Assembly: GCA_963748295.1 (NCBI GenBank)
Contig: CAVVIH010000001.1
Location: 238,021-302,020, forward strand
Origin: an uncultured Acidobacteriota bacterium
Lineage (GTDB): Bacteria > Acidobacteriota > Vicinamibacteria > Vicinamibacterales > 2-12-FULL-66-21
Direction: 5' to 3'
Length of the DNA: 64,000 nt
The notes under the pieces were generated by a model. That model was not told where the DNA came from. It made no database searches and saw only the letters and a list, made by a program, of their open reading frames with translations. Of the stretch, positions 5,972 to 64,000 are shown in pieces; position 1 is the stretch's first letter; each line of letters begins with the position of its first letter. Made by a program: the position numbers and the translations under genes.

Positions 5972-6016
5972 CTCCTCATTATAATTGACGTGTCTCGTTC
6001 CCACCGGATCCTGATC

Positions 6017-7421: not shown

Positions 7422-7438
7422 TAAACTCCGCTTCTGCC

Positions 7439-9313: not shown

Positions 9314-9357
9314 AGCCTGCCGCAGTCGCGCGGGCGATTGACAGCGGGCGATGGCGG

Positions 9358-27660: not shown

Positions 27661-28852
27661 GTCCCCCCTGCAGGAAAGCTAAACCCAAAAGCCGATGCAG
27701 ACACGCTATTTGACTAATGGGCCAATGATTGCAAGTTTCCAAAATCGGTAGCTGAACGTCGTCCACTCTAGTTCCAGCCGCTATCAACGCTTCCTGTCGG
27801 TGGAGTTCAAATGCATTTGCGAACAGATCCAGATGGCTCGACCGAGCGAGCGCCAGCGAGGATTCTGCCTGACGAATTGCATCGCTCCAATTATGTTGGG
27901 ATAGCATCATCCGAACGCGCGTCTGATGCGCATTCAACCGGTACCACGGTTGTATGCCTTCTCGGTCCTCGGCCTCGTCGAGAATCTTCAACGCAGATTC
28001 GTAGTCACCGGACGCCATGACAGTCCGAGCTTCGGTATCCGAAAGACTAAGCGCATAACTCGGATTGTCCAAAGGCTCACGGCGAGCCGCCTCAAGTTGC
28101 TCTCTCGCTTCCGACAGTCGACCGAGAGAGGAATATAAGAACGCTCGCGATGCAGCCGCCGCCATCTTGCCTCTGGACCAGCCACTTGCTGCAGCCTCCG
28201 CAGCACCGATTTCAGCTAAAGCCAAAGCTTCAGGGAGATTCCCCATCAACGTGAGAAGAGAAGCCTGATTCAACGCCGCACATGCAGCCAGGTGATGATT
28301 TGGTTCTGTGAGCAATAACCTCCGTGCAAGGTCGAAATGTTTATCCGAAATTGACGCCCGTCCGTTCTTTCCTTCTAACCTGCCAAATGTGATGTGAACC
28401 AAGGAGGTGGCATGGACGTCCCCACATCGCATTGCATATTCGCGGACACGTTTCGCCAGCGGCAACGATCTACTGAAGCCTTCACTGTCACAAACTCGCT
28501 CTAGAAGCTGCGCGGCCGTCTTGCACAACTGCGTATGATCACGAGCCTGTTCGGCAAACAGGATTGCCCGCCGGGTCATTTCGATCGCAATGGATGGGTG
28601 CCCAGAATGCCACTCAGCCTCTGCCATGAGTGACAGGGCCCGGCATTTGTACGCGGTCGTGAGCGTCGATGATGCCAGTATTCGCTTCGCTTCGCTGACG
28701 GCTTCCGAAGTTCTCCCGCGATATAACAGCAACTCTGCGCGCAAGATGGAGTGGTCGGGATCGCTCTTAACACGAACGGTCTCGAGAAGACCCAGAGCCT
28801 CTTCAAATCGACCTTCACGAACCGCTCGGTGGATAACGCTTTCTTCCGCCAT
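27374..28852 (-). CDS. TPR-like helical-repeat protein. The meaningful part is 27661..28852. The 3' 287 nt overlap the bEBP gene in another frame and probably reflect a 1-nt error in the C6 run at 27663..27668.
   Basis: ORF 27374..28852. Helical repeats are rich in A/L/E with TPR-like spacing (GRFEEALGLLE, YRGRTSEAVSEAKRIL, GNLPEALALAEIG, GRLSEAREQLEAA, GDYESALKILDEA). G+C is much lower than in the flanks. The sequence after ...LAFLQGG is Arg/Pro-rich frame noise inside the bEBP gene. Confidence 0.55.
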   Translation of the reverse strand: MAEESVIHRAVREGRFEEALGLLETVRVKSDPDHSILRAELLLYRGRTSEAVSEAKRILASSTLTTAYKCRALSLMAEAEWHSGHPSIAIEMTRRAILFAEQARDHTQLCKTAAQLLERVCDSEGFSRSLPLAKRVREYAMRCGDVHATSLVHITFGRLEGKNGRASISDKHFDLARRLLLTEPNHHLAACAALNQASLLTLMGNLPEALALAEIGAAEAAASGWSRGKMAAAASRAFLYSSLGRLSEAREQLEAARREPLDNPSYALSLSDTEARTVMASGDYESALKILDEAEDREGIQPWYRLNAHQTRVRMMLSQHNWSDAIRQAESSLALARSSHLDLFANAFELHRQEALIAAGTRVDDVQLPILETCNHWPISQIACLHRLLGLAFLQGGHAMRAAGHTRRASRLFESAGDFDAAAEATKTSVVFRFRSGSRLRHLPRQRRRAPRARRTPAHPRPRGVRAGAGHTLRRERRARRHRRQGAPRHRG

Positions 28853-28857
28853 AGTAG

Positions 28858-31228
28858 TTAATGAACTGATGTGCCGGGAGGCTGCGGGAGTATTGGCTGC
28901 TCGCGTCCAATCGCGCTCCGCATGAGAATCTCGAGGCTTGAACCATCAACTGGAGCACTTGCCACGCCAATAACGAGCTGGAGATGGGTAGCTAGCTCGT
29001 TAGAAAGCTCCTGTGACAACAGTGCCGAGACGCGAGTGGCAACGCCGAGAGCATCTGACAAGCCAGTCTGCGGTAGCAGCACCAAAAACTGATCTGTCTT
29101 ATGCCGGAGCAGCAGATCAACCGTCCGTAACCCTTTCTTAATGCCCTCGGCAATGCGATCGAGATCAGCACTTGAACCTTCATCGCGAAAACTGTCGGGC
29201 CGATGAGATATTTTCACAGTTACGACGATAATCGATACGTCGGACGCGGGGGTGAAGTCCGTAGTAACGAATCCCGGCTGAACCGTAGCTTGCATTCCCG
29301 ACGTTGAGAGCTTGCTCTCGATCGGCGGCTCAATCTTCAATGACGGCGCAACTTGTTTCACAATGCCTTCAACGATGCGGCGATGGTCTTCTCCGAATCC
29401 AGCCTCACTAGTCGAGTAGAGCGTTAGTACACCAATCAGATCATCTCCAGAGATCATTGGTGTATCCAGGCAGTTTTGAAGTGGTCTCAACCTCCGACCC
29501 ATATCGCCCAAATCAAGGACTGGATCCGAATTGACGATAGTTCGCTTATTAGCGGCAACCCAGCCGGTCAAACGTTCGCCACGATGAATGCGCAGCCCTA
29601 ACACGTGAGTTGAGTACCTCACCATTGGCTTGCGTGGCTACAAGATCATCGGTGGTTACTTCATACCTATAGAAAACGGATGTCGTCGCTGGAACCAGCC
29701 GCCTCAGGTGCGTAAACACTTCCTCAATGACCTGCGCACCGTCTGACCGACCAGACAAGGCTATGGCAAGGTCATACAAGACCATCATCTCTTCTGTGCT
29801 CGCGGCGATATCATTCAGGCGCGTTGTTCGCCCTGTCTGATCGGATGAAGTGCCGCCGCGAGCAATGCTTGAGAAGGCAAGTGTAGTGGTCGCAGCCGCA
29901 CGAAGTTCCTGACGAGCAACTGAGTGAACTTCGATGAAGGCGTCAACGATGATGGGATCGTACATAGAGCCGCGTCTATCGAGCAGGATTTTTATGGCGT
30001 CAGCGTCAGGTAGGCGCGGGCGATAAGGACGGTCTGATGTAAGAGCGTCAAAACAATCCACGACAGAAAGGATACGGGCGCCGATCGGAATCTCCGCGCC
30101 TCTCAGACCATCAGGATAGCCAGAACCATCCCAGTTCTCGTGGTGATGTCGAACGATCGGGACGACCGGGTATGGGAAATCGATCGCGGACAGAATATCT
30201 GCTCCGACGCTGGCGTGAAGCTTCATCTTCTCAAATTCCGCAGCGGTCAACTTACCTGGCTTGTTCAAGATATATTCAGGGACTGCAAGTTTTCCCATGT
30301 CGTGAAGAAGTGAGGCCGCTTCTATTGCGCTGATTTGAATCTGCTCTTTTACTCCAATATGTTTGGCAAGTTGGACCGCGTATTGCTGCACTCGCCTAAT
30401 GTGCCCGTGGGTGATCTGATCCTTGGCGTCGATCGCCATGGCCAGCGTCTCGATCGTCGACAGGTAGAGCTTATTGAGTTCGCTCAAGTGTCGATTCGCA
30501 TCGTCGACGCGGCCCAGGGCTGCCTTGAAAGTCAAATAAAAAATGAGGAGAACCGGAAGCAAAACACCAGTGACGTAGAGGAAGGCATCATAAGTGTTCG
30601 CCTGTAGCAAGTAGGGCAGGAGAAGCGCAGCGACCGAAGCCCCGCTGAAGTAGTTGAGAGACAGCCATAAGAAATTCTGTTTCCAAATCGTAAATGCTGC
30701 TTGTCCCTTCTGGAACGACACAGCAAACGCTACCAGCCAGCTGTTCAGCAGAAAATACAGCGCGGCCAATCCAAAGAGCGGAAGAACCACTGATAATACT
30801 GGTTGAGGCGTAACAGAGAGGGGATCTATCCGCGCAACTACGTAGAAGCCAGTGGACGCCGTCCAAATCGCTACAGCTGCGGCTGCGACGTTAAAGAAAA
30901 CTCTCGAAATTGGAATCGAGCTACGTCCCAGCCAGAAAGAAATGACTAAGGTGTCAAGTACTACAATCATGGTTGCGGCTGCGGGACCAAATAGAAGGAC
31001 AGCCGCAAATACAAACGTGTCTGAGACGGATAGTCGAGCGGAGACTCCAGGAATACGAACAGTGAAGGACCCACTCAATAGAGTGAGCACTGCTAGCATC
31101 GCCCATTGCGGCGGAATCGGTCTTTGGGCCAGCGACCAAATTGAATGCAGTACCGCAAAGACGCCGGCTAGAACGACGCTTGCTACATAAATACGTCCGG
31201 CATCTCCGAGTTTCTCTCGGGCGCGCAT
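28858..31228 (-). CDS. multi-TM sensor + HD-GYP phosphodiesterase + GAF + degenerate GGDEF domain (frame break near 29620)
   Basis: ORF 29549..31228 has about 7 TM segments, then HGHIRRVQQYA...LLHDMGKLAVPEYILNKPGKL...HHHENWDGSGYPDGL...VDCFDALTSDRPYR, then the start of a GAF domain (MMVLYDLAIAL...VFYRYEV). ORF 28858..29625 continues the GAF (GERLTGWVAANKRTIVNSDPVLDLGD). A GGDEF-like fold follows, with KTDQF where GGDEF is expected (DLLLRHKTDQFLVLLPQT). Confidence 0.75.
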
Positions 31229-31320
31229 TCGAACTCCCTGTAACCCTAGTCTCCCCAGATGATAAGTCGGCTCATCTGTTTGCTCCTTCTAGTATAGGGA
31301 CCATTGGTTGAAGTGCGGCT

Positions 31321-32993
31321 TCAATCAGCACGAACAACAGCGTCAGCCCAGACGATAGTGTCGGCCCAGACAATAGTGTCAGCCCACACGATGGTGTCGG
31401 CCCAGACGATTGTGTCCGACCACACCAGCGTGTCGGCCCAGACGATGGTGTCGGCCCAGACGATGGTGTCGGCCCAGACGATGGTGTCAGCCCAGACGAT
31501 GGTGTCAGCCCAGACGATAGTGTCGGCCCAGACGATAGTGTCGGCCCAGACGATGGTCTTAGCTCTCGATTTCTGAGAAATCGCGTATCGAGGGAGGAGT
31601 CCTTGTGGAGTGGATGCGTCATTGAATGCCAGACCCGACCGAAGGACTATCTCTCCGCCGATACTGATCGGCCCGCGATAAGTTTCTTCGCCAGCCCCAC
31701 CGCCGCCAGCGCATTCAGGCTCCCCGCCCCCGCCTCGATCAGCCCGGCCCCCTTCACCCGCGAGCTCGTGACCTGCAGGATCAGCTTGATCTCCGCCGGC
31801 GACAGGTTCGGCCGCGCCTCGAGGACCAAAGCGGCGGCGCCCGAGACGACGGCGGTCGACATGCTCGTGCCGCTCATCTCCATGTAGGCGCTGGTGCCGT
31901 CGCTCGTCACCACCCGCTCGGGATAATCCCGCGCCAGCGTGCTCGAGGCCATCACCGCCGACACGATGCGATTGCCCGGCGCCGCGAGCTCCGGCTTGAG
32001 CACGCCGTCGATCACGGACGGACCGCGCGAGCTGTAGGTCGCCATGATGTCGTCGGACCGCTCGGCGGTGCCGCGCGTGTTGAGCGCCCCCACCGTCAGC
32101 GCGAACGGCGAGTTGCCCGGCGACACGATTCCGCCCACCACCGGCTTCCCGTCGTCGGTCTTGCCGAAGTTGCCGGCCGCCGCGACGACGAGGATGCCCT
32201 CTTCGGTCGCCCGCTGCACGGCCTGGCACAGCGGATCGTCCTTGTACGACTCCAGCACCGGCTTGCCGAGCGAGAGGTTGATGATCCGGATGTTGTATTC
32301 GCGCTGGTGTGCGACGGCCCAGTCGATCGCTTCGATCACGTCGCTGGTCGTGCCCGACCCGTCGTCGCTGATCGCGCGGAGGCTGACGATGTGCGCGCCC
32401 GGCGCCACGCCGCGTTCACCGGCGGCGCCGCCCGAGATGATGCCCGCGACGTGCGTGCCGTGGCCGTAGCCGTCCGGATCGCCCGAGGACGAGTCCGTGA
32501 AATCAACCGACGCCACCACGCGGCCCGCGAGGTCGCGGTGATTGCCGACGCCGGAGTCGATGATCGCGACGCCGATGCCGCGGCCGGAATACGCGGAGAT
32601 GCCCTGGAGCGCCCCGCTCCACACCTGGTCGGCGCCAATCGCGCTGGTCGTGACGGCCATCATCCGCCGCACCGGCGCATCGCTCGAAACGGAGTCGACC
32701 TCGGGGTCCTGCGTCAGCGCATCCAGCTGACCGCCGCTGACTTCGAGAACCGCGCCGTTCCGGAGCGTCTTGAGGACGCGGACGCCGTACCGGGTCGCGA
32801 GCGTGTCGATCTGCTCGCGGCTGCCCGAGACGATGACCCGAGTGCTCGACTGGTCCCCAGCCGCCAGTCGGTCGACAAGATCCTTCGACAGCCGCGCCCG
32901 CCGAGGGCCGGCCTGTGCCGCCGCAACCACCAGTAGCGCGATCGCCAGGGTGGCGAGGCTGCGGAGAAACGTGCGTCGAACGAGAGTCATCAT
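31321..32993 (-). CDS. secreted S8 subtilisin-like protease (signal peptide, I9-like propeptide) with a C-terminal (TIVWAD)n array (frame break at the C-run 31672..31674)
   Basis: ORF 31647..32993: MMTLVRRTFLRSLATLAIALLVVAAAQA; VAIIDSGV (Asp), HGTHVAGII (His), GTSMSTAVVSGAAAL (Ser). After ...GLAKKLIAG, a 1-nt shift joins the frame of ORF 31321..32229: PISIGGEIVLRSGLAFNDASTPQGLLPRYAISQKSRAK(TIVWAD)n. Confidence 0.8.
31324..31557 (-). repeat. 13 head-to-tail 18-bp units encoding TIVWAD (one TLVWSD, last unit AVVRAD)
   Basis: Directly visible: GTCGGCCCAGACGATGGT-type units with mostly third-position differences. Open in several frames (ORFs 31272..31622, 31304..31576, 31321..32229). Confidence 0.95.
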
Positions 32994-33051
32994 GTGACCG
33001 CCGCCTAAGTTATTCAGTCAGCAGGGAAATCAGGTGGACGCGGGTAATGAA

Positions 33052-33067
33052 GGCACGCGACGTGCCA
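33052..33067 (-). promoter_or_regulatory. candidate sigma-54 (-24/-12) promoter upstream of subtilase 1
   Basis: The minus strand reads TGGCACGTCGCGTGCC, against the consensus TGGCACG-N4-TTGCW. GG and GC are correctly spaced, and 10 of 12 specified positions match. It lies about 60 nt upstream of the ATG at 32993. The element is palindromic (GGCACG cga CGTGCC). Confidence 0.4.
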
Positions 33068-33312
33068 CTCTCATCAATTGATGCCGATCGCCGATCGGCG
33101 GCGGGCGCTGATATGTCAGGAACGAACTCTTTGGTGCAGTTTAGTTGCGAGGAAGAAAACCTGTCGGCTACCATGTGCACATCCCGGAATCACGTGCGCA
33201 CGGTGATCAGCCAACAAGTTGGCCGCCCCGGCCAAAATCGGCATCTGGGTAGCGCTTACCCGCCGAAATAGCTAGGAAAACCCGCATTTGGCACCGGGCA
33301 AGTAATTGGCCG

Positions 33313-35068
33313 GTGAGTTCATTAGTGGCCCGAACATCGAAGACGCTCGGTCTCATCGTGATCCTCGGGATCGCCGCCGGCGCCGCGTGGCGCTTCAGGA
33401 CGCACGCGCCGGACGCGGTGCCGGACCGCGAAAACCTGCGCATTGTTCGCGGCGGCGAGCTGGTCGCCTCGCTTCGATCCGATCCCGCGACCTACAACCG
33501 CTACATCCGGCCGGGGGCCAGCGCGGCGACCGAGGTGGTCACGCAGCTCGTTCACGCGCGGCTGATCCGGGTCAACAGGTCGACGGATGAAATCGAGCCG
33601 TCGCTCGCCGAATCGTGGACCCGATCGGACGATGGATTGACTTACACCCTCCGGCTGCGCCGGGATGCGGCCTTCTCGGACGGGATGCCGTTCACGTCGG
33701 CTGATGTCCTTTTCTCGTTCCGCGCAGCGTACGACGAGGGGGTGAAGAGTCCGATTCGGACGTCACTGGAGGTCGCCGGCAAGCCGTTGCAGGTTACCGC
33801 GCCGGATTCGAACACGGTGGTGATCGTGTTTCCGCAGGCGTTTGCGCCCGGCCTCCGGCTGCTGGACAACCTGCCGATTCTCCCAAAGCACAAGCTCGAA
33901 GCGGCCCTCAACGGCGGCACGTTCGCCGAGCAGTGGGCCCCATCGAAGCCTCTTGGCGACATCGCCGGCCTGGGTCCGTTCACGCTCGTCGAGCACGTGT
34001 CGGGCCAGCGGCTGGTGTTCGCCCGGAACCCGCGATACTTCCGCAAGGACGACCGGGGTGAATCGCTGCCGTATCTCGATCGCCTGACGCTGGCAATCGT
34101 TCCGGACCAGAACACCGAAGCGCTTCGCCTCGAGGCGGGGGAGACCGACCTCATGGTGAATGGCGAGATCCGGCCGCAGGATTACGCGGCGTTCAAGCGC
34201 GCCGCGGACGAAGGCCGCGTCCGGCTCCTCGATGTCGGGGTCGGCCTCGACCCTGATTTCCTGTCATTCAACCTGCGGGCCGCGAAGCAGGCCGATCCGC
34301 GCTGGGGGTGGCTCGGACGCCGCGAGTTCCGTCAGGCGATCGCGTGGGGGGTCGATCGGCAGGCGATCGCCGACACGGTGTACCTCGGGGCGGCGGTTCC
34401 CATCTCGACGCCGGTCTCGCCCGGCAACCGGACCTGGTACTCGAAGGACCTGCCGGCGTTCAATCACGATCCGGCGCGGGCGCGGCAGCTGCTCGCGTCG
34501 CTCGGCCTGCGCGATGCGAACGGGGACGGTACTCTCGAGGACAAGTCCGGCGCGCCCGTGCGCTTCTCGATCCTGACCCAGGGCGGTCACAACCGCGAGC
34601 GAGTCGTCTCCGTTCTGCAGTCGCAGCTGGGCGCCCTCGGAATCGCGATCGACATCGTCGCGCTCGATCAGGGAGGCCTCTTCCAGCGGTGGAGCTCCGG
34701 CGACTACGACGCGATGTACTTCGGTCTCCAGGCCAGTTCCACCGACCCCTGGCTCAATCCCGAGGTACTGGCTCAGCTCCGGAGGATTTCACTTGTGGAA
34801 TCCGGCGCAACCAGCGCCGGCGACCGATTGGGAGGCCCGCATCGATACGCTGATGCGATCGACGGCCGGCGCACCGGATCTGGCCGCGCGCCAATCGGCA
34901 TTTGCCGACGTTCAGCGCATCCTGATCGAAGAGCTGCCCGCCATCTACTTCGTGACCCCGCGGCTGACCCTTGCGACGTCGCACAAGGTGGTGAACCCGA
35001 CACCGGCGCCGCAGAGTCCGCAACTGCTCTGGCGTGCCGAGACCCTCGCCTCGGCCGGCGCGCGCTGA
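33313..35068 (+). CDS. ABC transporter substrate-binding protein, family 5 (peptide/nickel, DppA/OppA-like) (frame break near 34760)
   Basis: ORF 33313..35160: IEPSLAESWTRSDDGLTYTLRLRRDAAFSDGMPFTSADVLFSF, GLGPFTLVEHVSGQRLVFARNPRYF. C-terminal part in ORF 34793..35068: WNPAQPAPATDWEARIDTLM...ELPAIYFVTP. Confidence 0.8.
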
Positions 35069-35069
35069 C

Positions 35070-36017
35070 GTGCCTCCAGGTTTCCTGCGCTTCGTCGTCC
35101 GCCGCACCATTTTTGCCGCGCTTCTCGTCGTGGTGGTGTCGTCGGCCGCCCTGGCGTTGATCTCGGCGGCCCCCGGCGGGCACCTCGCCGGCTTCGACCT
35201 GACCCCCGAGATCGTCGCCGCGGAGCGGGCGCGCCTCGGACTGGATCGGCCGTTCATCCAGCAGTACGCAGACTGGCTCGGGAAAGCGATCCGGCTCGAC
35301 TTCGGCGAATCCCTCAGATATCGACGGCCGGTTCAGGATCTCGTCAGGGAGCGCGCCTGGAACACCGTGGTGCTTGGCAGCGCCGCACTCCTGCTCGCGA
35401 CGGTGCTCGGAATTCCGGCGGGGATTTTCACCGGCAGCCGCACGAGCGCGCTCGCATCGCTGATGCGAGGCGTGTCGATGGTGCTGCTGTCGGTGCCGCC
35501 GCTGGTGACGTCTTTCTTGCTGCTGTACATCGCGGCGCGGACGCGCTGGCTGCCGGTCGGCGGGTTCGGCGGCGGCGCGCCGTCGAACGGCGCCCAGATG
35601 CTTCTGTATCTCGTCTTGCCGTGCCTCGCGCTGGCGATGCCGATGGCGGCGACGCTCGAACGCCTTCAATCACAGACGATGCGCGACGCGATGATGGAAC
35701 CGAGCATCGAGGCGGCACGCGCGCGCGGATGTTCGATCGCCCGGGTGATCTGGCGGCACGCGCTGCGCCTTTCGCTCAAGCCGGTCGTCGCCCTCTACGG
35801 GATCTTCCTCGGCAGCGTGCTGAGCGGATCGTTTGCGGTTGAAATCATCATGTCGTGGCCGGGGCTTGGCGCGCTGACGTATGAGGCGCTCGTCGCGAGA
35901 GATCTCTTTCTCGTCGCCGGCTGTGCCGCGGCCGGCGCCGCCTTCCTCGCCGCCGGCGTACTCGTATCCGACATTGCGCTCGCCGTCATCGATCCACGCG
36001 TCACGGAGGCGCATTGA
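35070..36017 (+). CDS. ABC transporter permease (DppB/OppB-like)
   Basis: The GTG at 35070 lies 2 nt after the SBP stop. FLRFVVRRTIFAALLVV..., LGLDRPFIQQYADWLGKAIRLDFGESL, six TM segments. Confidence 0.8.
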   Translation: MPPGFLRFVVRRTIFAALLVVVVSSAALALISAAPGGHLAGFDLTPEIVAAERARLGLDRPFIQQYADWLGKAIRLDFGESLRYRRPVQDLVRERAWNTVVLGSAALLLATVLGIPAGIFTGSRTSALASLMRGVSMVLLSVPPLVTSFLLLYIAARTRWLPVGGFGGGAPSNGAQMLLYLVLPCLALAMPMAATLERLQSQTMRDAMMEPSIEAARARGCSIARVIWRHALRLSLKPVVALYGIFLGSVLSGSFAVEIIMSWPGLGALTYEALVARDLFLVAGCAAAGAAFLAAGVLVSDIALAVIDPRVTEAH

Positions 36018-37039
36018 CACGCCCTGCGCCGCGCGCGATCGGCATCGCGATCATCGCCCTGCTTGCGGCCGCCGCCGCCGGAGCGAACGTCATTCGCGTC
36101 AATGCTCCCGATCGGCAGTTCTCCGATTTCGTATTCGCGCCGCCCATGCCGATCCGAATCTTCGATCGCGATGGCACGCTGCGGATGCCGTTCGTCTATC
36201 CCTTGCGTCTTCAGAGCCGGCTCGAACGCACCTTCGCCGAAGACCGTGATCATCCGATGCCGCTGCGGTTTTTTTCGGGGGGCAAGCTGATTACCACGGC
36301 TGACAGCGGGTCGCCATGGTTCCCGCTCGGAACCGACGCGCTCGGCCGGGACGTTTTCGCGCGGCTCGCCACCGGCAGCCGCCTCTCGCTCGGCGTGGCG
36401 TTCGCGGCCGCCGCGGGCGCGTTGCTGATCGGCGCGCTGGCCGGCGCGATCGCCGGACTCCTGGGCGGGCGCATCGACGACGTGCTGATGCGTGTGTCGG
36501 AATTCATCCTCGCGCTGCCGGCGCTCTACGTGGTCCTGGCACTGCGGGCCGCGGCGCCGCTCATCCTCAGCACGGCGCAGATCTTCTGGATCATGGTCAC
36601 CGTCTTCGCGCTCGTCGGATGGCCCTTCGCGGCGCGCGGCGTCCGCGCCATCGTTGCCGCCGAACGGACACGGGAGTACGCAGAAGCTGCGCGATCGATC
36701 GGCGCTTCCCGTACGCGTTTGTTGCTACGTCACCTCCTGCCTGCCACGCGTGGCTTTCTCGTCGTGCAGGCAACCCTGCTCCTCCCGGCGTTCATCCTGG
36801 CTGAAGCGACTCTGTCCTTTGCAGGTCTTGGATTTGGCGAGCCGACACCGAGCTGGGGAGTGATGCTTCAGGAGGCGGGCAGGGGGCGCACACTCGCCGA
36901 TGCTCCCTGGCTCCTGGCCCCCGCCGGCGCGATTGCCGCCCTCGTTTTTGCCGTCAACCTCTTCACAGGAGCGACCGTTTCTGCACACCCGCGCCTGACG
37001 TCATCAGATAAATCACGCGTTATCAATGATTTATCGTGA
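36014..37039 (+). CDS. ABC transporter permease (DppC/OppC-like)
   Basis: Overlaps the upstream stop codon. PLGTDALGRDVFARLATGSRLSLGVAF, EYAEAARSIGASRTRLLLRHLLP (EAA-like loop). Confidence 0.8.
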   Translation: MTRPAPRAIGIAIIALLAAAAAGANVIRVNAPDRQFSDFVFAPPMPIRIFDRDGTLRMPFVYPLRLQSRLERTFAEDRDHPMPLRFFSGGKLITTADSGSPWFPLGTDALGRDVFARLATGSRLSLGVAFAAAAGALLIGALAGAIAGLLGGRIDDVLMRVSEFILALPALYVVLALRAAAPLILSTAQIFWIMVTVFALVGWPFAARGVRAIVAAERTREYAEAARSIGASRTRLLLRHLLPATRGFLVVQATLLLPAFILAEATLSFAGLGFGEPTPSWGVMLQEAGRGRTLADAPWLLAPAGAIAALVFAVNLFTGATVSAHPRLTSSDKSRVINDLS

Positions 37040-37266
37040 CTGTCTCAAGAGTGTTCCAGACCTGACATCGGTGTGACGGAATTGAACATAGGGGTAACCC
37101 ACTAATTGCTTGCTATTTAGCCTTCCGTCAAAGACAAATTACAGCCTTGTATGTTCCAGGATGGTGCACGATGATCGTCCTGAGGCCCGGTCCAACAGTT
37201 CCGTATTTCTCAGCAAGTCTCAGTTCGGCAAGTAGATAGCTCACCTTTGCGCAAGCCCGGCCGTCG

Positions 37267-37282
37267 TGGCCGACGCCTTGCT
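37267..37282 (+). promoter_or_regulatory. candidate sigma-54 (-24/-12) promoter upstream of the GNAT-subtilase-GNAT unit
   Basis: TGGCCGACGCCTTGCT against the consensus TGGCACG-N4-TTGCW. GG and GC are correctly spaced and TTGCT is a perfect -12 element. It lies 70 nt upstream of the ATG at 37352, in a 310-bp lower-GC non-coding spacer. Confidence 0.45.
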
Positions 37283-37351
37283 CTGCCGGTGGCTGTCAAC
37301 AAGGTGTGTCTTCGCCGCCCGCGGGCGCACACACCCAGGAGCAAAAAGACC

Positions 37352-38005
37352 ATGGCGACCTCGATGTCAGACCCCGTCGGACAGCAGCTCGCGACGAACG
37401 TGATTCCGGCGGCAGTCCAGGAAAGTGACTGGCGCAAGCGGCTCCCGGTGATCGCGGGGCGCGGCGTCACCCTGCGCGAGTTGCGGGCCGGCGACGCGCC
37501 GGCGTTGCTCGAGTTGCTCGCGACCAGCGAGGTCGCCCAGTTCATTTCGCCGCCACCGACGACGGTCGACGGGTTCGAGCGCTTCATTTCATGGGCGCAG
37601 CAGGAACAGCGGGAAGGCCGCTACGTGTGCTTCGCGGTCGTGCCCGAGGGCATGTCGACGGCGGTCGGGATCTTTCAGGTTCGGAAGCTCGAACCGCAGC
37701 TCGGCACCGCCGAGTGGGGTTTCGCGCTCGGCCGCGCCTACTGGGGCTCGGGAATCTTCGCGGCTTCGGCGCGGCTCGTCGTCGACTTCGCGTTCGAGAC
37801 CGTCGGCGTGCATCGTCTCGAAGCGCGTGCGGCGGTCGCGAACGGGCGCGGCAACGGCGCGCTCGCGAAAATCGGCGCGGTGAAGGAAGGTCTGCTGCGC
37901 AGGAGCTTCCTGCGGCACGGGCAGTATCACGACCAGACGCTCTGGTCGATCGTGCGGGAAGACTGGCGGCGGTCGAAAGCAGTGTGGGGGGACGTGGTGC
38001 ACTGA
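37352..38005 (+). CDS. GNAT family N-acetyltransferase (RimJ/RimL-like)
   Basis: Internal Met of ORF 37247..38005. VTLRELRAGDAPALLELL, EWGFALGRAYWGSGIF, GVHRLEARAAVANGRGNGALAKIGAVKEGLLRRSF. No signal peptide. Confidence 0.8.
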   Translation: MATSMSDPVGQQLATNVIPAAVQESDWRKRLPVIAGRGVTLRELRAGDAPALLELLATSEVAQFISPPPTTVDGFERFISWAQQEQREGRYVCFAVVPEGMSTAVGIFQVRKLEPQLGTAEWGFALGRAYWGSGIFAASARLVVDFAFETVGVHRLEARAAVANGRGNGALAKIGAVKEGLLRRSFLRHGQYHDQTLWSIVREDWRRSKAVWGDVVH

Positions 38006-38111
38006 TTCCGAAAAGCTCTTTGACCCACCGCCCGCGAAACGGGCGGGTATCCAGAGCGGCGACAACGTGACCACTTCCGGAAGCGACGGAAGGTATAGAA
38101 GGGACGGAGTG

Positions 38112-40191
38112 ATGCAGTTCCGATGGGTTAACCGAACGTGGGCGGTCAGGATCCTGGCCCTCGCGTGCTTGACGGGGGTGATTGCCCCGCCGGCAGCGCA
38201 GGCCGAGAGCTACCGCAACCGCCAGCTCGAAAAGCAGCTCGAGCAGATCGAGAGGCAGGCGAAGGAGCAGGAGGACGCGCAGTACGGAAAGCGCGGACGG
38301 CTCCACGACCTGAAGTCGCTGCGCGAGAAGGGCCGGATTCGCGTCCTCGTGATGCTGAAGCCTGGCTCGGATGGCTCTCAGCTCGACGAAGCAGCTTGGC
38401 GGCCGCCTCGCCCGGGAGTTCCGCTTCTCGAACTTCGCGGCGCTCGATCTGCCGATGGGCCAGCTGAAGAAGCTCGCGCGTTACAGCGACGTTCTCTCCG
38501 TCCACCTGGATCGCGACATCGCCGGCGACATGACCCGCGAGATGAGCGCGATTGGCGCACGCTACGTCCAGGAGCAATACGGCTTCGACGGGAGGGGCGT
38601 GGGCGTCGCGGTGATCGACTCGGGGATCACCGGATGGCACGACGACCTGACCTATCAGGGCACTTCGGCCAAGGTGCGCGTGGTGAATGGCCAGCGCGTG
38701 GCGGCGTTCGTCGACTTCGTCGAAGGCACGACGACGCCGCATGACGACTTCGGCCACGGCACGCACGTCGCCGGCATCATTGCCGGCAACGGCTACGACT
38801 CGGACGGCGCGCGCGCCGGCGTCGCCCCCGCAGCGCACATCGTCAGCCTCCGCGTGCTCGACGATCAGGGCTTCGGCGTGATCAGCGACGTCATGGCGGC
38901 GCTCGAGTGGGCGGTAGCGAACAAGGCGGCGCACAACATCCGCGTCATCAACATGTCGGTGGGCGCGGGCGTGCACGAATCCTACAACACCGACCCGCTG
39001 ACGCTTGCGGCGAAGCACGCGGTGGAGTCGGGCATCGTCGTCGTCGCGGCCGCGGGCAACCTCGGCAAGACGAGCGACGGCAAGATCCTCTACGGCGGCA
39101 TCTGCGCGCCCGGCAACGCACCCTGGGTGCTGACGGTCGGCGCGTCGGACACGAAGGGCACGGCGACGCGATTCGACGACTCGGTCGCGCCGTACAGTTC
39201 GCGTGGGCCCTCGCTGATTGATCACGCCGCCAAGCCCGACGTCGTCGCGCCTGGCACCAGCATCGTTTCGCTTGCGGATCCGAACAGCCTGCTTTACACC
39301 GCACGGGCCGGATCCCTCGTTCGCGGCACGCACCCGATGGCGACCAAGCCTTACCTGTCGCTGACCGGCACGAGCATGGCGGCGCCGATGGTGTCGGGCA
39401 CGGTCGCGCTGATGCTGCAGGCGAACCCGACGCTCACGCCGAACCTCGTCAAGGCGGTGCTGCAGTTCACGGCGTTCGACAGCGGTGACGCAGATCCGCT
39501 GACCGAAGGCGCCGGCTTCCTGAACGCACGCGGTGCGGTCGACCTGGTGCGCTACTTCAAGACTGCGACGTACGGGTCGCGGTACCCGGTCTCGAGCAGC
39601 TGGAGCCAGCAGATTCTGTGGGGCAACTACCAGCTGAGCGGCGGCGTGCTGTCGCCGACCGCGAGCGCCTGGGGCCTCGACATCGTCTGGGGCACCGCAC
39701 TTGACCGCGAGGGCCGGAACATCGTCTGGGGCACGCTCTGCGACGACGACTGCGAAAACATCGTGTGGGGCACGGACATCGTGTGGGGCACGGACATCGT
39801 GTGGGGCACGAACATCGTCTGGGGCACCTACGGTGACGGCGAGAACATCGTCTGGGGCACCCTCGATGATCTGGGCAGCAGCCGCAACATCGTCTGGGGC
39901 ACGCTTTGCGAGGGCCGCAACTGCCGCGACATCGTCTGGGGCACCGACATCGTCTGGGGCACGGACATCGTCTGGGGCACCGACATCGTGTGGGGCACGG
40001 CGCTCGACCTCGAAGACGTGGTCTGGGGGACGATGGCCGATTTCGAGAACATCGTCTGGGGCACGAGCGGCGCCGACGAGGACGGACCGATGTATGACGA
40101 CCCGGAGGGGACCATAGGGATCTTCCCGCTCCTGCCGGATGAGGAAATCTCCATCAGCCTGACGCTGATGCCAGCCGGGGGAGGTCTCTAA
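38112..40191 (+). CDS. secreted S8 subtilisin-like protease with a C-terminal xIVWGT repeat array (frame break near 38370)
   Basis: MQFRWVNRTWAVRILALACLTGVIAPPAAQA (frame of ORF 38067..38744), then ORF 38371..40191: VAVIDSGI (Asp), HGTHVAGIIAG (His), GTSMAAPMVSGTVALM (Ser), followed by 15 xIVWGT units. Confidence 0.8.
39679..40064 (+). repeat. 15 (D/N)(I/V)VWGT hexapeptide units, some contiguous and some separated by 5-8 aa spacers
   Basis: DIVWGT ALDREGR NIVWGT LCDDDCE NIVWGT DIVWGT DIVWGT NIVWGT YGDGE NIVWGT LDDLGSSR NIVWGT LCEGRNCR DIVWGT DIVWGT DIVWGT DIVWGT ALDLE DVVWGT MADFE NIVWGT. Confidence 0.9.
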
Positions 40192-40859
40192 TGGAGAAGA
40201 TGCCTTTCCACGAGTCAGAACAAATCGGCGACGTGCACGCCGTGATGATGGCTGCGTCGACGGAGCAGGTGACGACGAGCGACTGGCGTCAGAAGCTGCC
40301 GGTGCTCACCGGGTCGATGGTCACGCTGCGCGAGCTGCGGCTGTCGGATGCGCCGTCGCTGCTGTCGATGCTCTCGACCGAGGAAGTGGCGCGATTCATC
40401 TCGCCGCCGCCGACGACGATCGAGGGGTTCGAGCGATTCATCGCCTGGACGCATCGTGAGCGGGCGGTCGGCGCGTATGTCTGCTTCGCGGTGGTTCCGC
40501 ACGGCATGGACACTGCCGTCGGGATCTTCCAGGTGCGTCAGCTCGATCCTGGATTCAGCACCGCCGAGTGGGGCTTCGCGATTGGATCCCCGTTCTGGGG
40601 CACGGGCGTGTTCGTCGACGGCGCGAAAATGGTGATCGACTTCACCTTCGAGGTCGTCGGGTCGCACCGGCTCGAAGCGCGTGCGGCGGTGGCCAACGGC
40701 CGCGGCAACGGCGCGCTGCGCAAGATGGGCGCGAGCCAGGAAGGGGTGCTGCGCAAGTCGTTCCTGAGGGATGGCGAGTATCTCGATCAGACCCTCTGGA
40801 CGATCGTCGAAGACGACTGGCGGCGGAACCGGACGCCCGGCACGCCGCGCGTCCACTGA
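40191..40859 (+). CDS. GNAT family N-acetyltransferase, paralog of 37352..38005
   Basis: The ATG shares one nucleotide with the subtilase TAA (TAATG), and GGGGGAGG lies 8 nt upstream. VTLRELRLSDAPSLLSML, EWGFAIGSPFWGTGVF, GSHRLEARAAVANGRGNGALRKMGASQEGVLRKSF. Colinear with the first GNAT. Confidence 0.8.
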   Translation: MEKMPFHESEQIGDVHAVMMAASTEQVTTSDWRQKLPVLTGSMVTLRELRLSDAPSLLSMLSTEEVARFISPPPTTIEGFERFIAWTHRERAVGAYVCFAVVPHGMDTAVGIFQVRQLDPGFSTAEWGFAIGSPFWGTGVFVDGAKMVIDFTFEVVGSHRLEARAAVANGRGNGALRKMGASQEGVLRKSFLRDGEYLDQTLWTIVEDDWRRNRTPGTPRVH

Positions 40860-40886
40860 CGCCTGGTCCATCGTTTGGGAGGAGAG

Positions 40887-40921
40887 GGGCCGAAGCAGTG
40901 AAAGCTGCTTCGGCCCTTTTT
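40887..40921 (+). terminator. rho-independent terminator
   Basis: 12-bp GC-rich stem GGGCCGAAGCAG / CTGCTTCGGCCC, 6-nt loop, then TTTTT. It lies 28 nt after the GNAT stop codon. Confidence 0.75.
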
Positions 40922-40944
40922 GCGTTCGTGTTAGTCTGCCTCCG

Positions 40945-41843
40945 ATGAACCTCGAGGCCGTTTTCCCGCCGATTCCCACTCCGTTCGCGGGCGACGACAT
41001 CGACGCGGCGGCGATCAGAGCCAACGTCGGCAGGCTGATGGAAACAGGCTCTCGGTGGAATCGTGGCGCTCGGCTCGAACGGCGAAGCGCCGTTGCTGGA
41101 CGAAACCGAATCGGATCGCGTGATTGCCGCGGCGCGCGAGGCGACGCCTTCGGAGCGCACGCTGATTGCCGGCACGGGACGCGAGTCCACGCAAGCCACC
41201 ATCGCCGCTTCGAAGCGGGCGGCGGCGCTCGGCGCTGACGCGGTGCTGGTTCGGACGCCGTCGTACTACAAGGGCGCGCATGACGTCCGATGCGTTCGTC
41301 GCCCATTACACGGCGGTGGCGGATCACTCGCCGGTGCCCGTGTTGATCTACAACTATCCCGCCGTGACCGGCGTCAACATCGCCGCGGCCGCGGTCGGCC
41401 GGCTGTCGCGGCATGCGAACATCGTCGGCATCAAGGAGACCGGCAGCGACACCGCCCAGGTTGCCGATTTCGTGGCGGCGTCGGCCGGGAGCTTCACGGT
41501 GATCGCCGGGTCCGCGCCGACGTTCTACTCGTCGCTGTGCGTCGGGGCGCGCGGCGCCATTCTGGCGGTCGCGTGCGTGCTGCCGGATATCTGTGTCGCG
41601 CTGCTGGAGCATTACCGCGCCGGCCGTCACGGCGAGGCACGCGAGCTGCAGCGGCGGCTGACGCCTCTCGCGAAGCTCGTGACGACTGTCCACGGCGTTC
41701 CCGGGCTCAAGGCTGCGCTCGATCTGGCTGGATACACTGGCGGGCTGCCGAGACCCCCGCTCGCGCCGTGTTCGCGGGAAGGCGTCGAGGAAATCCGCCG
41801 CGAGCTCGCAGCGGTGCAGTCCTTCGCGGCAGCTGGGCGATGA
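40945..41843 (+). CDS. DapA/N-acetylneuraminate-lyase family aldolase (two frame breaks, near 41050 and 41285)
   Basis: MNLEAVFPPIPTPFAGDDIDAAAIRANVGRLMETG, then IVALGSNGEAPLLDETESDRVIAAAREA...LIAGTGRESTQATIAASKRAAALGADAVLVRTPSYY, then FVAHYTAVADHSPVPVLIYNYPAVTGVNI...IVGIKETGSD. Confidence 0.7.
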
Positions 41844-42985
41844 CGATTCCCGAACGGCTCCTGCTCGGCCCCGGCCCAAGCCCCGTTTCCGCGCGCGTGT
41901 CGAACGCGCTGACGCAGCCGGTGCTCAGCCATCTCGATCCCGCGATGATGGCAATCCTGGACGACGTCCGTGCGCGTCTCGGGCGCGTGTTCGGCGCGTC
42001 GGACAAGGCGTTCAGCCTGGCCGTCTCGGGCACCGGCACCGCGGGCATGGAAGCGGCGGTCGCCAATCTCGTGTCGCCGGGAACGCACGCGGCGGTAATC
42101 GTCAACGGCTACTTCGGCGATCGGCTCGCACGCATGATCGGGTCGTACGGCGCCGACGTCATGCGCGTCGAGGGCGAGTGGGGCCGCGCCTGCGATCCGG
42201 CGGCGCTCGAGCGGACGCTGCGCGCGGCCGCGATCGATCTGGTGGGCGTCGTCCACGCGGAAACGTCGACCGGCGTGCTGAATCCGCTGCAGGATGTGTT
42301 GACGGTTGCTGGAAAGGTTGGCGCGCTGACCATCGTCGACGCGGTCACCTCGCTGGGCGCCATCCCGCTCCGCGCGCAGGAGTGGGGGGTGGATGCGTGC
42401 TATAGCTGCACACAAAAAGGACTCGGCGCGCCTTCCGGTCTCGCGCCTCTGACTTTCTCTCCACGCGCGAACGAGCGCCGCGTGGCATCGCGGAGCTTCT
42501 ATTTCGATCTGGCGCTGCTCGAAGACTATTGGCTGCGGCGCAAGTACCACCACACGATCTCGGCGCCGTTGATTTATGCGCTTCGCGAGGCGCTCGCCGT
42601 GGTCGAAGAGGAAGGTCTCGACGCGCGCTGGGATCGGCACCGCCGAAACCATCTGGCGCTGGTCGCGGGTCTCGAGGCGCTCGGTCTCGATCTCTTGCCG
42701 GCGCCGGGCGAACGGCTCTGGACGCTCAACGCGATCCGGGTGCCCGACGGCGTCGACGAAGCGGACGTTCGCCGGCGTCTGCTCGACAGCCACGGCATTG
42801 AAATAGGCGCGGGACTCGGGCCGCTGGCCGGACGCATCTGGCGCGTCGGCCTGATGGGCGCGGGATCCACCATCGAGAACGTCGAGCGATTTCTAACCGC
42901 GCTCGAAGCTGTGCTTACCGAAGCCGGGCTTCGACTCCCGCAACGCGGTGCCGCAAGCTCTGCGGCCCGGCACGCTATCAGTTGA
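41840..42985 (+). CDS. class V aminotransferase (alanine-glyoxylate / serine-pyruvate type)
   Basis: ATGA overlap with the upstream gene. LLLGPGPSPVSARV, AVSGTGTAGMEAAVANL, VVHAETSTGVLNPL, DAVTSLGAIPLRAQEWGVDACYSCTQKGLGAPSGLAP. Confidence 0.8.
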   Translation: MTIPERLLLGPGPSPVSARVSNALTQPVLSHLDPAMMAILDDVRARLGRVFGASDKAFSLAVSGTGTAGMEAAVANLVSPGTHAAVIVNGYFGDRLARMIGSYGADVMRVEGEWGRACDPAALERTLRAAAIDLVGVVHAETSTGVLNPLQDVLTVAGKVGALTIVDAVTSLGAIPLRAQEWGVDACYSCTQKGLGAPSGLAPLTFSPRANERRVASRSFYFDLALLEDYWLRRKYHHTISAPLIYALREALAVVEEEGLDARWDRHRRNHLALVAGLEALGLDLLPAPGERLWTLNAIRVPDGVDEADVRRRLLDSHGIEIGAGLGPLAGRIWRVGLMGAGSTIENVERFLTALEAVLTEAGLRLPQRGAASSAARHAIS

Positions 42986-53153: not shown

Positions 53154-53421
53154 CGGTCCGAAACGACGGTTTCCGGAGCAAAAACCGTGGGATTGCGGCA
53201 ACTTACAATTTTGAGCGCTGTGGTATCATTGCCACACTCTCAGGCCTCCACACTGTGGCTGGCCGGCCACAATCGTCGCTCCGTGACCCGATTCCGCACG
53301 CGGTTTTCGACACGCAAGACGAACCAAGTCAACAACTTAGGCGCCGTATACCAGATGTCCTGCGGGTGGCAGACTGTTTGCTGAGCTGGGAGAAGCTCTC
53401 CCCCATGCGATCCGAGAGGTC

Positions 53422-63863: not shown

Positions 63864-64000
63864 GGGGATTCACGGGGGTCCGTTGAGCAATGCGTGTACC
63901 ACGGTCCGTTACGCCGGCCACGCGAGCTGACAGCCACGTGATCATCGGCCAAATTCGTAAGCGGCCGACGAGCCCGTAATCGCGACGGGTTGGACCGGGC

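Follow-up and report, generated by a model that had tools for sequence, protein, structure and literature searches.

Acidobacteriota are among the most abundant bacteria in soil, yet there has been, to our knowledge, hardly any characterisation of their extracellular proteolysis or of signalling between their cells. Here we describe a gene cluster in a 64,000-nucleotide stretch of DNA from an uncultured member of this phylum (contig CAVVIH010000001.1, positions 238,021 to 302,020; numbered here from its first letter and called the window throughout). The window is about 67% GC and its nearest relatives are uncultured Vicinamibacterales. At the centre of the cluster are two proteases of the S8 (subtilase) family, S8-1 and S8-2, each carrying a signal peptide at one end and, near the other, an array of a tryptophan-containing hexapeptide. 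Regulatory, uptake and acetyltransferase genes accompany them.

Gene order and conservation of the cluster

An earlier note, made from the sequence alone, had described a module of these genes at 31321-40859. Our map, built from a listing of open reading frames (ORFs) and from Pfam and NCBIfam scans, finds every gene that it named where it had put them or close by, and this core stands. The cluster as a whole is wider, spanning about 15 kb (26155-40921), and reaches its outer limit with an HD-GYP/GAF/GGDEF protein and a tetratricopeptide repeat (TPR) sensor. Read along the minus strand, S8-1 is followed by a mini-ORF of 9 codons, by the gene of the membrane HD-GYP/GAF/GGDEF protein and by that of a TPR sigma-54 activator. 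Divergent from S8-1, the plus strand carries a family-5 solute-binding protein (SBP5), two permeases, a GNAT acetyltransferase found in part of the loci (GNAT1), S8-2, a second GNAT (GNAT2) and a terminator.

This order is syntenic in about 100 Vicinamibacterales genomes and metagenome contigs, in searches that used S8-2, GNAT2 or S8-1. The full arrangement was seen in about 20 species-level genomes collected with S8-2, and again in 78 further loci collected with GNAT2. Among 80 contigs collected with S8-1, SBP5 diverges from S8-1 in 64 of 69 metagenome loci and the HD-GYP gene lies downstream of it in 18 of 23. S8-2 is followed by a GNAT gene in essentially every locus, and the two genes are duplicated together in a tandem S8-GNAT-S8-GNAT arrangement in about 13 loci (e.g. 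among L109-L186; also in L012, 10001-16323), so that the pair behaves as a unit. Thus the earlier suggestion that these genes form a conserved unit holds, and where an unconserved neighbourhood had been named as the outcome that would speak against it, synteny was found instead. A DapA-like gene (DHDPS family) and a class-V aminotransferase gene, 3' of the terminator (40939-42985), are also syntenic in most genomes.

S8-1 (31321-32993, minus strand) consists of a Sec signal peptide, a pro-region, an S8 domain with the D-H-S triad (Pfam Peptidase_S8, 1.5e-54), a linker and its array. S8-2 (38112-40191, plus strand) has a signal peptide, a pro-region, an S8 domain (1.8e-53), its array and a Pro/Thr-poor tail ending in ...GGGL. 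Both domains, at 185.7 and 182.2 bits, lie far above the cut-off of 21.8 (MEROPS S8/PF00082), and the IDSG, GHGTHVAG and GTSM(S/A) motifs are present in both translations. Orthologues of S8-1 are 574-615 residues long, with the array in frame. Those of S8-2 are part of a set of more than 7900 homologues, of which the top 120 are about 700 residues long, with 55-63% identity and 92-100% query coverage. Database annotation of these proteins is limited to 'S8 peptidase/AprX'. A C-terminal ...G-G-(L/F/V), preceded by a variable Pro/Thr-rich linker, is common to all S8-2 homologues (P0001-P0126; 40150-40188 in the window); this end, which is not PEP-CTERM-like, may be a sorting or recognition signal.

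The reading frames need a word of explanation, as the earlier note, right about the genes, had overlooked single-base frameshifts in S8-1, S8-2 and the SBP, three genes that can be read through once these are repaired. In the raw sequence the catalytic ORF of S8-1 ends at 31647, out of frame with the array (switch placed at about 31670-31690 or 31599-31683), and the signal peptide of S8-2 (MQFRW...AAQA, ATG at 38112) is out of frame with the catalytic ORF that runs from 38371 (switch placed at about 38385-38395 or 38374-38395). The SBP is split at 34758-34766, the HD-GYP gene at about 29607-29618 and the activator gene at about 27570-27599. Outside the cluster, the DapA-like gene is broken twice (41039-41049 and 41272-41289). 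Aligning intact orthologues to the window gives 7 frame switches in six genes between 26 and 43 kb, about one per 2.3 kb. In both Illumina and nanopore assemblies the orthologues are intact and the arrays are in frame with the S8 domain. Related loci from long-read metagenome-assembled genomes (MAGs) show scattered breaks at other positions, and neither GC at third codon positions (GC3) nor protein similarity diminishes across any of the breaks. Because the orthologues are intact, DapA is broken as well and the related MAGs are broken elsewhere, these interruptions are read as assembly indels rather than as signs of pseudogenes; comparison of the sequences makes indel errors in an indel-prone, long-read assembly the most likely explanation. 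Other overlapping large ORFs of the window, e.g. 6015-12207 (plus strand), may carry similar breaks. Short-read metagenome contigs often stop within the array or a few bases past it (L267-L346; e.g. L269, L270, L281, L294, L298, L300, L308 and L314), and many database entries for array-bearing proteases are tagged 'partial' or are cut at about 430-460 residues. There is a practical warning here: the arrays disrupt assembly and reading frames, so gene callers truncate these proteases.

The tryptophan hexapeptide arrays and the mini-ORF

The array of S8-1 (31342-31557, minus strand) is made of 12 tandem 18-bp units, 11 of them encoding TIVWAD and one TLVWSD (Tandem Repeats Finder, TRF: period 18, score 313, 87% DNA matches). 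That of S8-2 (about 39680-40040, plus strand) holds about 18 NIVWGT or DIVWGT units, part of them directly adjoining and the others set apart by linkers that are acidic or contain Cys (TRF periods 18, 36 and 171). Both TRF and the translations thus bear out the arrays that had been noticed on the two subtilases.

In S8-1 orthologues the arrays count 5-19 units and are uniform within a genome, and the unit varies from one genome to another: TIVWAD, AMVWTD, TIVWGD, SVVWTN, TLVWAD, TIVWSD, SLVWTD, SIAWTD and others. In fact, arrays of this kind extend well beyond the order. A genome scan with the S8-1 alignment found analogous arrays in 57 of 80 loci, on S8 proteases 36-52% identical, across the Acidobacteriota and in a few other MAGs; at least one true S8-1 orthologue is among the matches listed. 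The units of these distant arrays include SVVWGN, NVLWGS, SAVWGS, TMIWDN, NALWGG and GYLWSD. Some arrays (L190, L212, L263, L019, L192) contain two unit types, alternating or in blocks (TIIWGN/TMVWGS, SVIWGG/SVLWGT, NLVWGE/NIVWGE, TIVWGE/TIVWAD), and there are 'punctuation' units, such as SHFWGQ among TMIWDN. When the array segment and an intact orthologue (L001) were run through hmmscan, the arrays matched nothing in Pfam or NCBIfam and Peptidase_S8 was the only match; the canonical Hexapep, RTX and cell-wall-binding-repeat identities were rejected for want of a Pfam match. A HMMER search with the S8-2 tail against 1.84 billion representatives returned 520 proteins, all of them S8 protease C-termini or fragments.

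The arrays have an unusual pattern of variation. Pooled over arrays, units compared with their own array consensus differ at a synonymous proportion (pS) of 0.318 and a non-synonymous proportion (pN) of 0.044. The S8-1 array of the window has 13 synonymous and 4 non-synonymous differences among its units, and non-synonymous differences fall mostly in degenerate edge units. Many arrays have no non-synonymous difference at all at a pS of 0.4-0.8 (16 copies of TMVWGS, for example, with 29 synonymous differences and none non-synonymous), and serine may be encoded by both TCN and AGY codons inside a single array. As pN is far below pS, selection must hold all six residues uniform within a lineage; runs of identical neighbouring units indicate that local duplication also occurs. 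Between lineages, four of the six positions differ. Arrays often finish exactly at a unit boundary, where a stop codon follows. Identity within an array despite codon drift, with a unit that differs between genomes, is typical of the precursors of multi-copy bioactive peptides.

A single unit of this type is also encoded on its own. Between S8-1 and the HD-GYP gene lies a mini-ORF (31246-31275, minus strand), absent from the earlier note, that encodes MSRLIIWGD, one array-like unit, behind a Shine-Dalgarno sequence (AGGAG, 31283-31287). It starts 45 nt past the S8-1 stop, ends 17 nt ahead of the HD-GYP ATG and reads AGGAG-N7-ATG AGC CGA CTT ATC ATC TGG GGA GAC TAG. All 15 of the orthologous genomes whose sequence spans this region have an equivalent ORF of 8-10 codons with a Shine-Dalgarno sequence, as do many metagenome loci, some of them from relatives only about 50% identical (L001-L034, L056, L267-L346). 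Its variants include MRIIIWTD, MRIIVWTE, MQRLIVWGD, MRRLIVWAD, MGKVIVWGD, MKTVIVWD and MRTLIIWGE. The codons are AT-rich and show synonymous turnover (Arg CGN/AGA, Leu CTN/TTA, Ile ATA/ATT/ATC). Such turnover, and the use of other codons than in the array, speak for a translated ORF rather than for simple gene conversion. Of about 36 distinct pairs of mini-ORF and local array, 27 have the same residue after the tryptophan, where independence would give a fraction of about 0.31. By residue, T goes with T in 14 of 15 pairs, G with G in 9 of 10, D with D in 2 of 2 and A with A in 2 of 5; S goes with G in 4 of 4, all counted as mismatches. Near-perfect in the first 11-15 genomes, this covariation weakened to 27 of 36 when metagenome loci were added, and since the pairs are phylogenetically clustered the match is suggestive only.

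Promoters, regulators and uptake genes

Each protease unit is preceded by an element of the GG-N10-GC type, as had been noted before. P1 (TGGCACGTCGCGTGCC, 33052-33067, minus strand) is a sigma-54-type -24/-12 promoter of the S8-1 unit, and P2 (TGGCCGACGCCTTGCT, 37267-37282, plus strand) one of the (GNAT1)-S8-2-GNAT2 unit. Both have the -24 GG and the -12 GC exactly 10 nt apart, close to the consensus TGGCAC-N5-TTGCW and upstream of a gene, which is how we recognised such promoters. Judged by the consensus such elements are at chance level, with 21 matches in the window and 20.5 expected, and so we used phylogenetic footprinting instead. All 15 orthologous loci compared have P1 in the form TGGCAY-N5-GTGCY, and the bases of its spacer vary. 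The element is near-palindromic, but TGGCAT and GTGCT variants break the palindrome and keep the -24/-12 rules, and distant relatives have the non-palindromic TGGCGC-N5-GTTGCT. Among metagenome loci a P1 score of at least 9 was found on the forward strand in 35 of 77, against 8 of 77 in the reverse-strand control. For P2 the conserved form is TGGCC-N6-CTTGCT, kept in about 22 of 24 loci; it precedes GNAT1 in loci with that gene and S8-2 in the others. It is this conservation in orthologues that makes P1 and P2 credible, and both protease units may credibly be regarded as sigma-54-dependent. The two best matches to the sigma-54 consensus, with one mismatch each, lie outside the cluster (53367-53382, plus strand, TGGCAGACTGTTTGCT; 63886-63901, minus strand, TGGTACACGCATTGCT), and no RpoN box was found in the 64-kb window.

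Upstream of P2, at 115 nt, is an activator-type inverted repeat (TGTTCCAGGATGGTGCA, 37152-37168, plus strand). Its general form, TGTNCC-N5-GGNNCA, recurs at -115 and about -197 of P2 in nearly all of 22 loci; the window holds one copy, for 0.25 expected. The intergenic region of S8-1 and SBP5 contains, at 33210-33261, two palindromes, GCCAA-N4-TTGGC (33210-33223) and GGGTA-N5-TACCC (33247-33261), candidate activator or operator sites that are invariant in a 15-locus alignment and unique in the window, with chance expectations of 0.07 and 0.00 respectively. The footprints at both promoters, the sites upstream of P2 and the presence of a GAFTGA activator in the S8-1 unit support the sigma-54 control that had been suspected.

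That activator is encoded at 26155-28852 (minus strand, split by a frameshift) and combines TPR repeats, an AAA+ domain with the GAFTGA motif (at 26898) and an HTH_8 domain (Pfam Sigma54_activat, AAA_lid_14, HTH_8 and TPR). What had been taken for a receiver-less sigma-54 activator proves to be one part, the C-terminal one, of a larger TPR-AAA+-HTH protein; this has about 890 residues, of which the N-terminal 420 are TPR repeats. The fusion was established from orthologous loci, where the protein is a single ORF of 890-932 residues (L031, L032, L034, L056); a homology search with the TPR domain gave a single fragment. Immediately upstream, at 28858-31228 (minus strand), is the gene of an integral-membrane protein of cyclic di-GMP (c-di-GMP) turnover, with HD-GYP, GAF and GGDEF domains (Pfam HD_5, HD and a weak MASE9). 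An intact orthologue has 810 residues with HD_5, GAF and GGDEF, and the protein has at least 6 transmembrane-like segments in residues 1-240. Its stop codon lies 3 nt ahead of the activator start codon, and no terminator was predicted from S8-1 through the end of the activator gene; from this layout, autoregulation of the activator from P1 is plausible.

The two regulatory genes also stand out in composition. GC falls to 0.52-0.56 in the HD-GYP gene and to 0.52-0.61 over this gene and the TPR part together (27600-31228), in flanks of about 0.70, and the change falls even inside the single ORF of the activator. As this dip is kept in all orthologues (L030-L034, L056), it does not stem from recent horizontal transfer. 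The TPR domain and the HD-GYP gene are moreover the least conserved parts of the locus, with 24-39% identity compared with 66-77% for the AAA+ part.

On the plus strand, the SBP (33313-35068) has an N-terminal anchor or signal (Pfam SBP_bac_5, 9e-75), and is followed by the two ATP-binding cassette (ABC) permeases (35034-36017 and 36014-37039; BPD_transp_1). Together they had been called a peptide ABC importer. The binding protein and the permeases are there; the Opp/Dpp type, however, comprises SBP5, two permeases and two ATPases (OppD/OppF), and the ATPases are missing at the locus, while the peptide specificity had been assumed. In NCBIfam the SBP scores 145 bits with NikA (cut-off 393), 93 with DppA (1005) and 37 with OppA (947), and thus is not an OppA/DppA equivalog.

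GNAT1 (37352-38005, plus strand; Acetyltransf_3, 2.6e-23) and GNAT2 (40191-40859, plus strand; 2.7e-20) are putatively RimJ/RimL-like, predicted to be cytoplasmic and 65% identical to each other; neither has a hydrophobic N-terminus, which agrees with the earlier view of two paralogs that lack signal peptides. Their Acetyltransf_3 scores are 83.7 and 73.9 bits (cut-off 25.4), those with the RimL/RimJ equivalogs 19-30 (cut-offs 184-190), and the closest structure is TTHA1799 (E 4e-13). GNAT1, the upstream copy, is found in about 22 of the 78 further loci. The ATG of GNAT2 overlaps the stop of S8-2, and across 80 loci GNAT2 is 68-82% identical, which makes it more conserved than S8-2 itself (55-63%). 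The unit is closed by an intrinsic terminator (40887-40921, plus strand) with a GC-rich 17-bp stem, of which about 15 are perfectly complementary, a 4-nt loop and a TTTTT tail; its folding energy (-37.7 kcal/mol, z -3.98) confirms it as the strong one that the sequence had suggested.

Outside the Vicinamibacterales these partners become scarce. Near the 57 array-bearing S8 genes found across the Acidobacteriota, a GNAT occurs in 6 and an SBP5 in 11, so that the co-occurrence of array-bearing proteases with both, which had been proposed as a check, is found in the Vicinamibacterales and is mostly lacking elsewhere. An HD-GYP homologue lies within 3.5 kb in 26 of the 57, which points to a signalling partner. 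In paralogous and distant loci (L014, 10001-13900, and L187-L266), an array-bearing S8 gene adjoins an HD-GYP/GAF/GGDEF gene and at times a sigma-54 activator gene, with no SBP or GNAT. To judge from this distribution, the system seems to have its ancient core in the pair of S8 and HD-GYP genes.

Possible functions and comparison with known systems

PADLOC models gave generic catalytic-domain and AAA+ matches (subtilase, IetS, RtcR-like) and left the GNATs and the TPR domain unmatched, and a known anti-phage defence system was rejected, as no match was system-specific. No description of this locus was found in the literature. The impression that this is not a recognised system thus survived Pfam, NCBIfam, PADLOC and the literature alike, and by these sequence-based tools and libraries the feature is conserved and undescribed.

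To explain these observations we tentatively propose that the arrays are multi-copy peptide cassettes in a sigma-54-controlled autoinduction or signalling module that resembles RRNPP systems, a possibility that we place first without great confidence. Cleavage of the arrays by the exported proteases, whether in cis or in trans, would probably follow the tryptophan, a good P1 residue for subtilisins, and would set free a single hexapeptide typical of the species, for instance ADTIVW or TIVWAD, in many copies. At the membrane, the multi-pass HD-GYP protein would sense the peptide and convert it into a c-di-GMP output. The peptide may also enter through the SBP5 permease and bind the TPR domain of the activator, which would then drive P1 and P2 in a positive feedback. 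The cytoplasmic GNATs would N-acetylate imported peptides and thereby stabilise or quench them; cleavage would expose Ala, Thr, Gly or Ser at the N-terminus, residues on which Rim-type enzymes typically act. Finally, the mini-ORF peptide, matched to this array unit, would be a mimic made in the cytoplasm or would serve as a sensor at the level of translation.

The new evidence leans towards such a release of cassettes: it is favoured by selection that acts at the level of the peptide, by arrays that end at a unit boundary, by the mini-ORF of a single unit, and by an uptake system beside a TPR regulator. An SBP5 with permeases, a TPR sensor fused to an activator and extracellular S8 proteases, found together and in synteny, fit a peptide circuit as far as gene content goes. 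Fast divergence with an AT shift, as seen in the TPR domain and the HD-GYP gene, is what would be expected of a receptor that diversifies together with its ligand. We also count in favour of the proposal that the array has neither a Pfam or NCBIfam match nor a confidently predicted fold.

Several findings weigh against this proposal. All of its steps past export (cleavage, uptake, binding) are ones that we infer. No ABC ATPase but UvrA was found in the 64-kb window by a search for Walker A and LSGGQ motifs, and none in the orthologous loci, so that the importer is incomplete at the locus; the best NCBIfam similarities of its SBP (NikA, CntA, Opp4A, DppA) are all far under their cut-offs. An upstream element common to P1 and P2 was looked for and none was found, and as their upstream elements differ, control by one common activator does not follow. 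Beyond the Vicinamibacterales most array-bearing proteases have no SBP, GNAT or TPR partner, and since the unrelated DapA and aminotransferase genes are syntenic too, gene order alone is weak evidence of function. As for the mini-ORF, its covariation with the array is largely a split among a few clades, with a small effective number of independent cases, and it has no export signal.

The remaining points of this kind lead to the strongest rival, to which we give nearly equal standing: the arrays may instead be a structural domain that is kept on the mature protease, a beta-hairpin, meander or solenoid-like ladder of tryptophans. Such a ladder would tether the enzyme to exopolysaccharide, to the cell envelope or to a polymeric substrate, and the locus would serve matrix remodelling or protein scavenging under sigma-54 and c-di-GMP control, with the SBP5 permease importing the products; for its neighbouring genes the mini-ORF would act as an upstream ORF or supply a strand-capping peptide. 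Secreted subtilases as a rule carry accessory domains at their C-terminus, and HD-GYP regulators such as RpfG control extracellular enzymes. The repeat, moreover, was never found away from an S8 domain. Throughout the phylum its pattern of x-hydrophobic-hydrophobic-W-(G/small)-(D/N/S/T) resembles a short strand and a tight turn, degenerate 'capping' units flank the arrays, and in three arrays two unit types alternate, which fits the period of a hairpin. S8-2 in particular differs from S8-1 and has a structural flavour: species do not differ in its NIVWGT core, which together with two Cys pairs shows no variation in an alignment of 44 sequences, and its units are usually spaced by acidic linkers of 4-8 residues that hold these Cys pairs. 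(In the window several linkers are missing, leaving pure DIVWGT runs.)

Structure prediction does not decide between the two, as the models gave no confident fold for either array. AlphaFold2 run on the full S8-2 with the 44-sequence alignment was uninformative, with a mean predicted local distance difference test score (pLDDT) of 45.8, the array below 30 and the catalytic domain poor too. Run on the S8-1 tail as a single sequence it gave a pLDDT of about 41-50, and it is such a single-sequence model, at a low pLDDT of about 50, that drew strands of 4 residues with turns of 2. A folded ladder that escapes two AlphaFold2 runs is less appealing, and it would be unusual for structural repeats to stay exactly alike at all six positions over 8-18 units while their synonymous sites approach saturation, all the more so as those same positions vary freely between genomes. 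An array that stops at a unit boundary has no cap; a separately translated peptide of one unit that tracks the array is not naturally explained; and the TPR sensor and the tightly coupled GNAT are left without an explanation.

We consider it improbable that the cluster is an ordinary nutritional module, in which the proteases would digest environmental protein under nitrogen (sigma-54) control, the oligopeptides would be imported, the arrays would be labile low-complexity tails, and the GNATs and the HD-GYP protein would be mere neighbours. Sigma-54 commonly governs nitrogen scavenging, the protease genes adjoin SBP5-permease genes, the source annotation is an unassuming 'S8 peptidase/AprX', and the synteny of the unrelated DapA and aminotransferase genes would leave room for chance neighbours. 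Labile tails, however, would hardly be under very strong purifying selection at each array position or persist throughout the phylum. Nor would mere neighbours be expected to behave as the GNATs do, duplicated with S8-2 as a unit and, in GNAT2, more conserved than the protease, to keep the HD-GYP association in distant lineages, or to include a conserved mini-ORF.

Very unlikely, in our view, is a system of the RiPP kind (ribosomally synthesised and post-translationally modified peptides), with multi-core precursors from which the fused protease would excise the cores and the GNAT would N-acetylate them, to yield an antibiotic or a metal-binding peptide, and with the SBP-permease set for re-uptake or immunity. 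Its appeal lies in the identical cores in multiple copies and in an SBP whose best similarity is to metallophore and nickel binders; GNATs do tailor some RiPPs, and borosins have cores fused to an enzyme. The conserved cluster and its flanks, however, contain no cyclase, radical-SAM, YcaO, lanthionine or other core-modifying enzyme, and no exporter is present. The GNATs are cytoplasmic, yet the cores would be exported first, and matches to the PatA/PatG models reach 44-46 bits, where 421 would be required. Least probable of all is that the locus is decaying and its five interrupted genes (S8-1, S8-2, SBP, HD-GYP and activator) are pseudogenes with real frameshifts, as the housekeeping-type DapA is broken twice at the same overall rate, related long-read loci are broken at different places, and GC3 and protein similarity carry on across the breaks.

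If the cassette proposal is carried to the whole phylum, Acidobacteriota would use a peptide communication that evolved independently, with lineage-specific Trp-hexapeptide pheromones borne on subtilases and read out by HD-GYP/GGDEF proteins through c-di-GMP. In the Vicinamibacterales, SBP5 uptake would also feed a TPR sigma-54 activator, with the mini-peptide and the GNATs as internal modulators, and the whole would be a functional analogue of RRNPP signalling in diderms; we regard this wider extension as doubtful. Were the arrays released signals, diderm bacteria would have a new way to peptide-based quorum sensing, and the precursor logic, with an enzyme that bears its own product in multiple copies, would be new as well. 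Were they a folded tether, both the minimal beta-repeat fold and the principle of anchoring would be new. Either way, a C-terminal S8 module that is spread through a phylum, is absent from Pfam and NCBIfam and has an unusual selection signature deserves attention, and so does the wiring of the Vicinamibacterales cluster, with its two footprinted sigma-54 promoters, upstream sites, TPR activator and c-di-GMP enzyme.

How does this locus compare with known systems? The comparisons with RRNPP systems, kexin-type precursors, subtilases with accessory domains and HD-GYP or LapD-LapG systems rest on general knowledge of those families. RpfC/RpfG with its diffusible signal factor (DSF) and LapD/LapG likewise link a sensor that metabolises c-di-GMP to an extracellular protease or to the biology of the cell surface. 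Their signals and protease families are different (LapG is a cysteine protease), and they lack repeat arrays, sigma-54 and a TPR activator. The left-handed beta-helix of Hexapep domains (PF00132) shares with the arrays a six-residue period and an aliphatic residue in each unit. Hexapep domains sit in cytoplasmic acyltransferases, unlike arrays on secreted S8 proteases, and the identity was rejected, as hmmscan gave no match and [LIV]-[GAED]-x2-[STAV]-x does not fit x-I-V-W-G/A-x. Subtilases with PPC, P-domain, FN3 or beta-solenoid extensions have the same plan of signal peptide, pro-region, catalytic domain and C-terminal repeats, but here the extension has no Pfam or NCBIfam match and no confident fold, and its units, six residues long, do not differ inside a genome but vary in number.

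Cyanobactin clusters (PatE/PatA/PatG) have several cores per precursor and S8-family proteases, and PatE had been offered as an analogy for the arrays. Cyanobactin identity was rejected on the scores of the PatA/PatG models (TIGR03895), which are far under threshold, and for the lack of a heterocyclase, a macrocyclase domain and recognition sequences; the arrays described here, moreover, are Sec-exported.

Closer in logic are the precursors cut by kexins (yeast alpha-factor, fungal KEP, and the dikaritins ustiloxin and victorin), which have tandem identical cores of about hexapeptide size, codon drift and release by a member of the subtilase family. Those systems are eukaryotic and use dibasic sites, spacer peptides and a precursor separate from the protease, whereas the array here is the protease's own C-terminus and has no dibasic sites. 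The other close parallel is with the RRNPP systems of Firmicutes and phages (Rap/Phr, PlcR/PapR, Rgg/SHP and the AimR/AimP arbitrium). With these the locus shares, on our proposal, a peptide of 5-8 residues, extracellular maturation by a subtilisin-type protease, family-5 ABC import of the Opp type, a cytoplasmic TPR regulator beside the peptide gene, autoregulation and tiny peptide genes beside the receptor gene. It differs in its diderm host, in the absence of an ATPase from the locus, in the addition of a membrane HD-GYP/GGDEF protein and of GNATs, and in a presumed pro-peptide that is multi-copy and fused to a protease. The TPR domain, for its part, is fused to a sigma-54 AAA+ domain and not to a helix-turn-helix (HTH) or phosphatase domain. 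A phmmer search of all PDB chains with it returned no match at E<=1, and thus no similarity to the RRNPP receptor structures; without homology to Rap, NprR, PlcR, PrgX, Rgg or AimR, the locus is not counted among RRNPP systems. Homologous to neither, it resembles both in its logic, that of an RRNPP circuit and that of a kexin-processed precursor.

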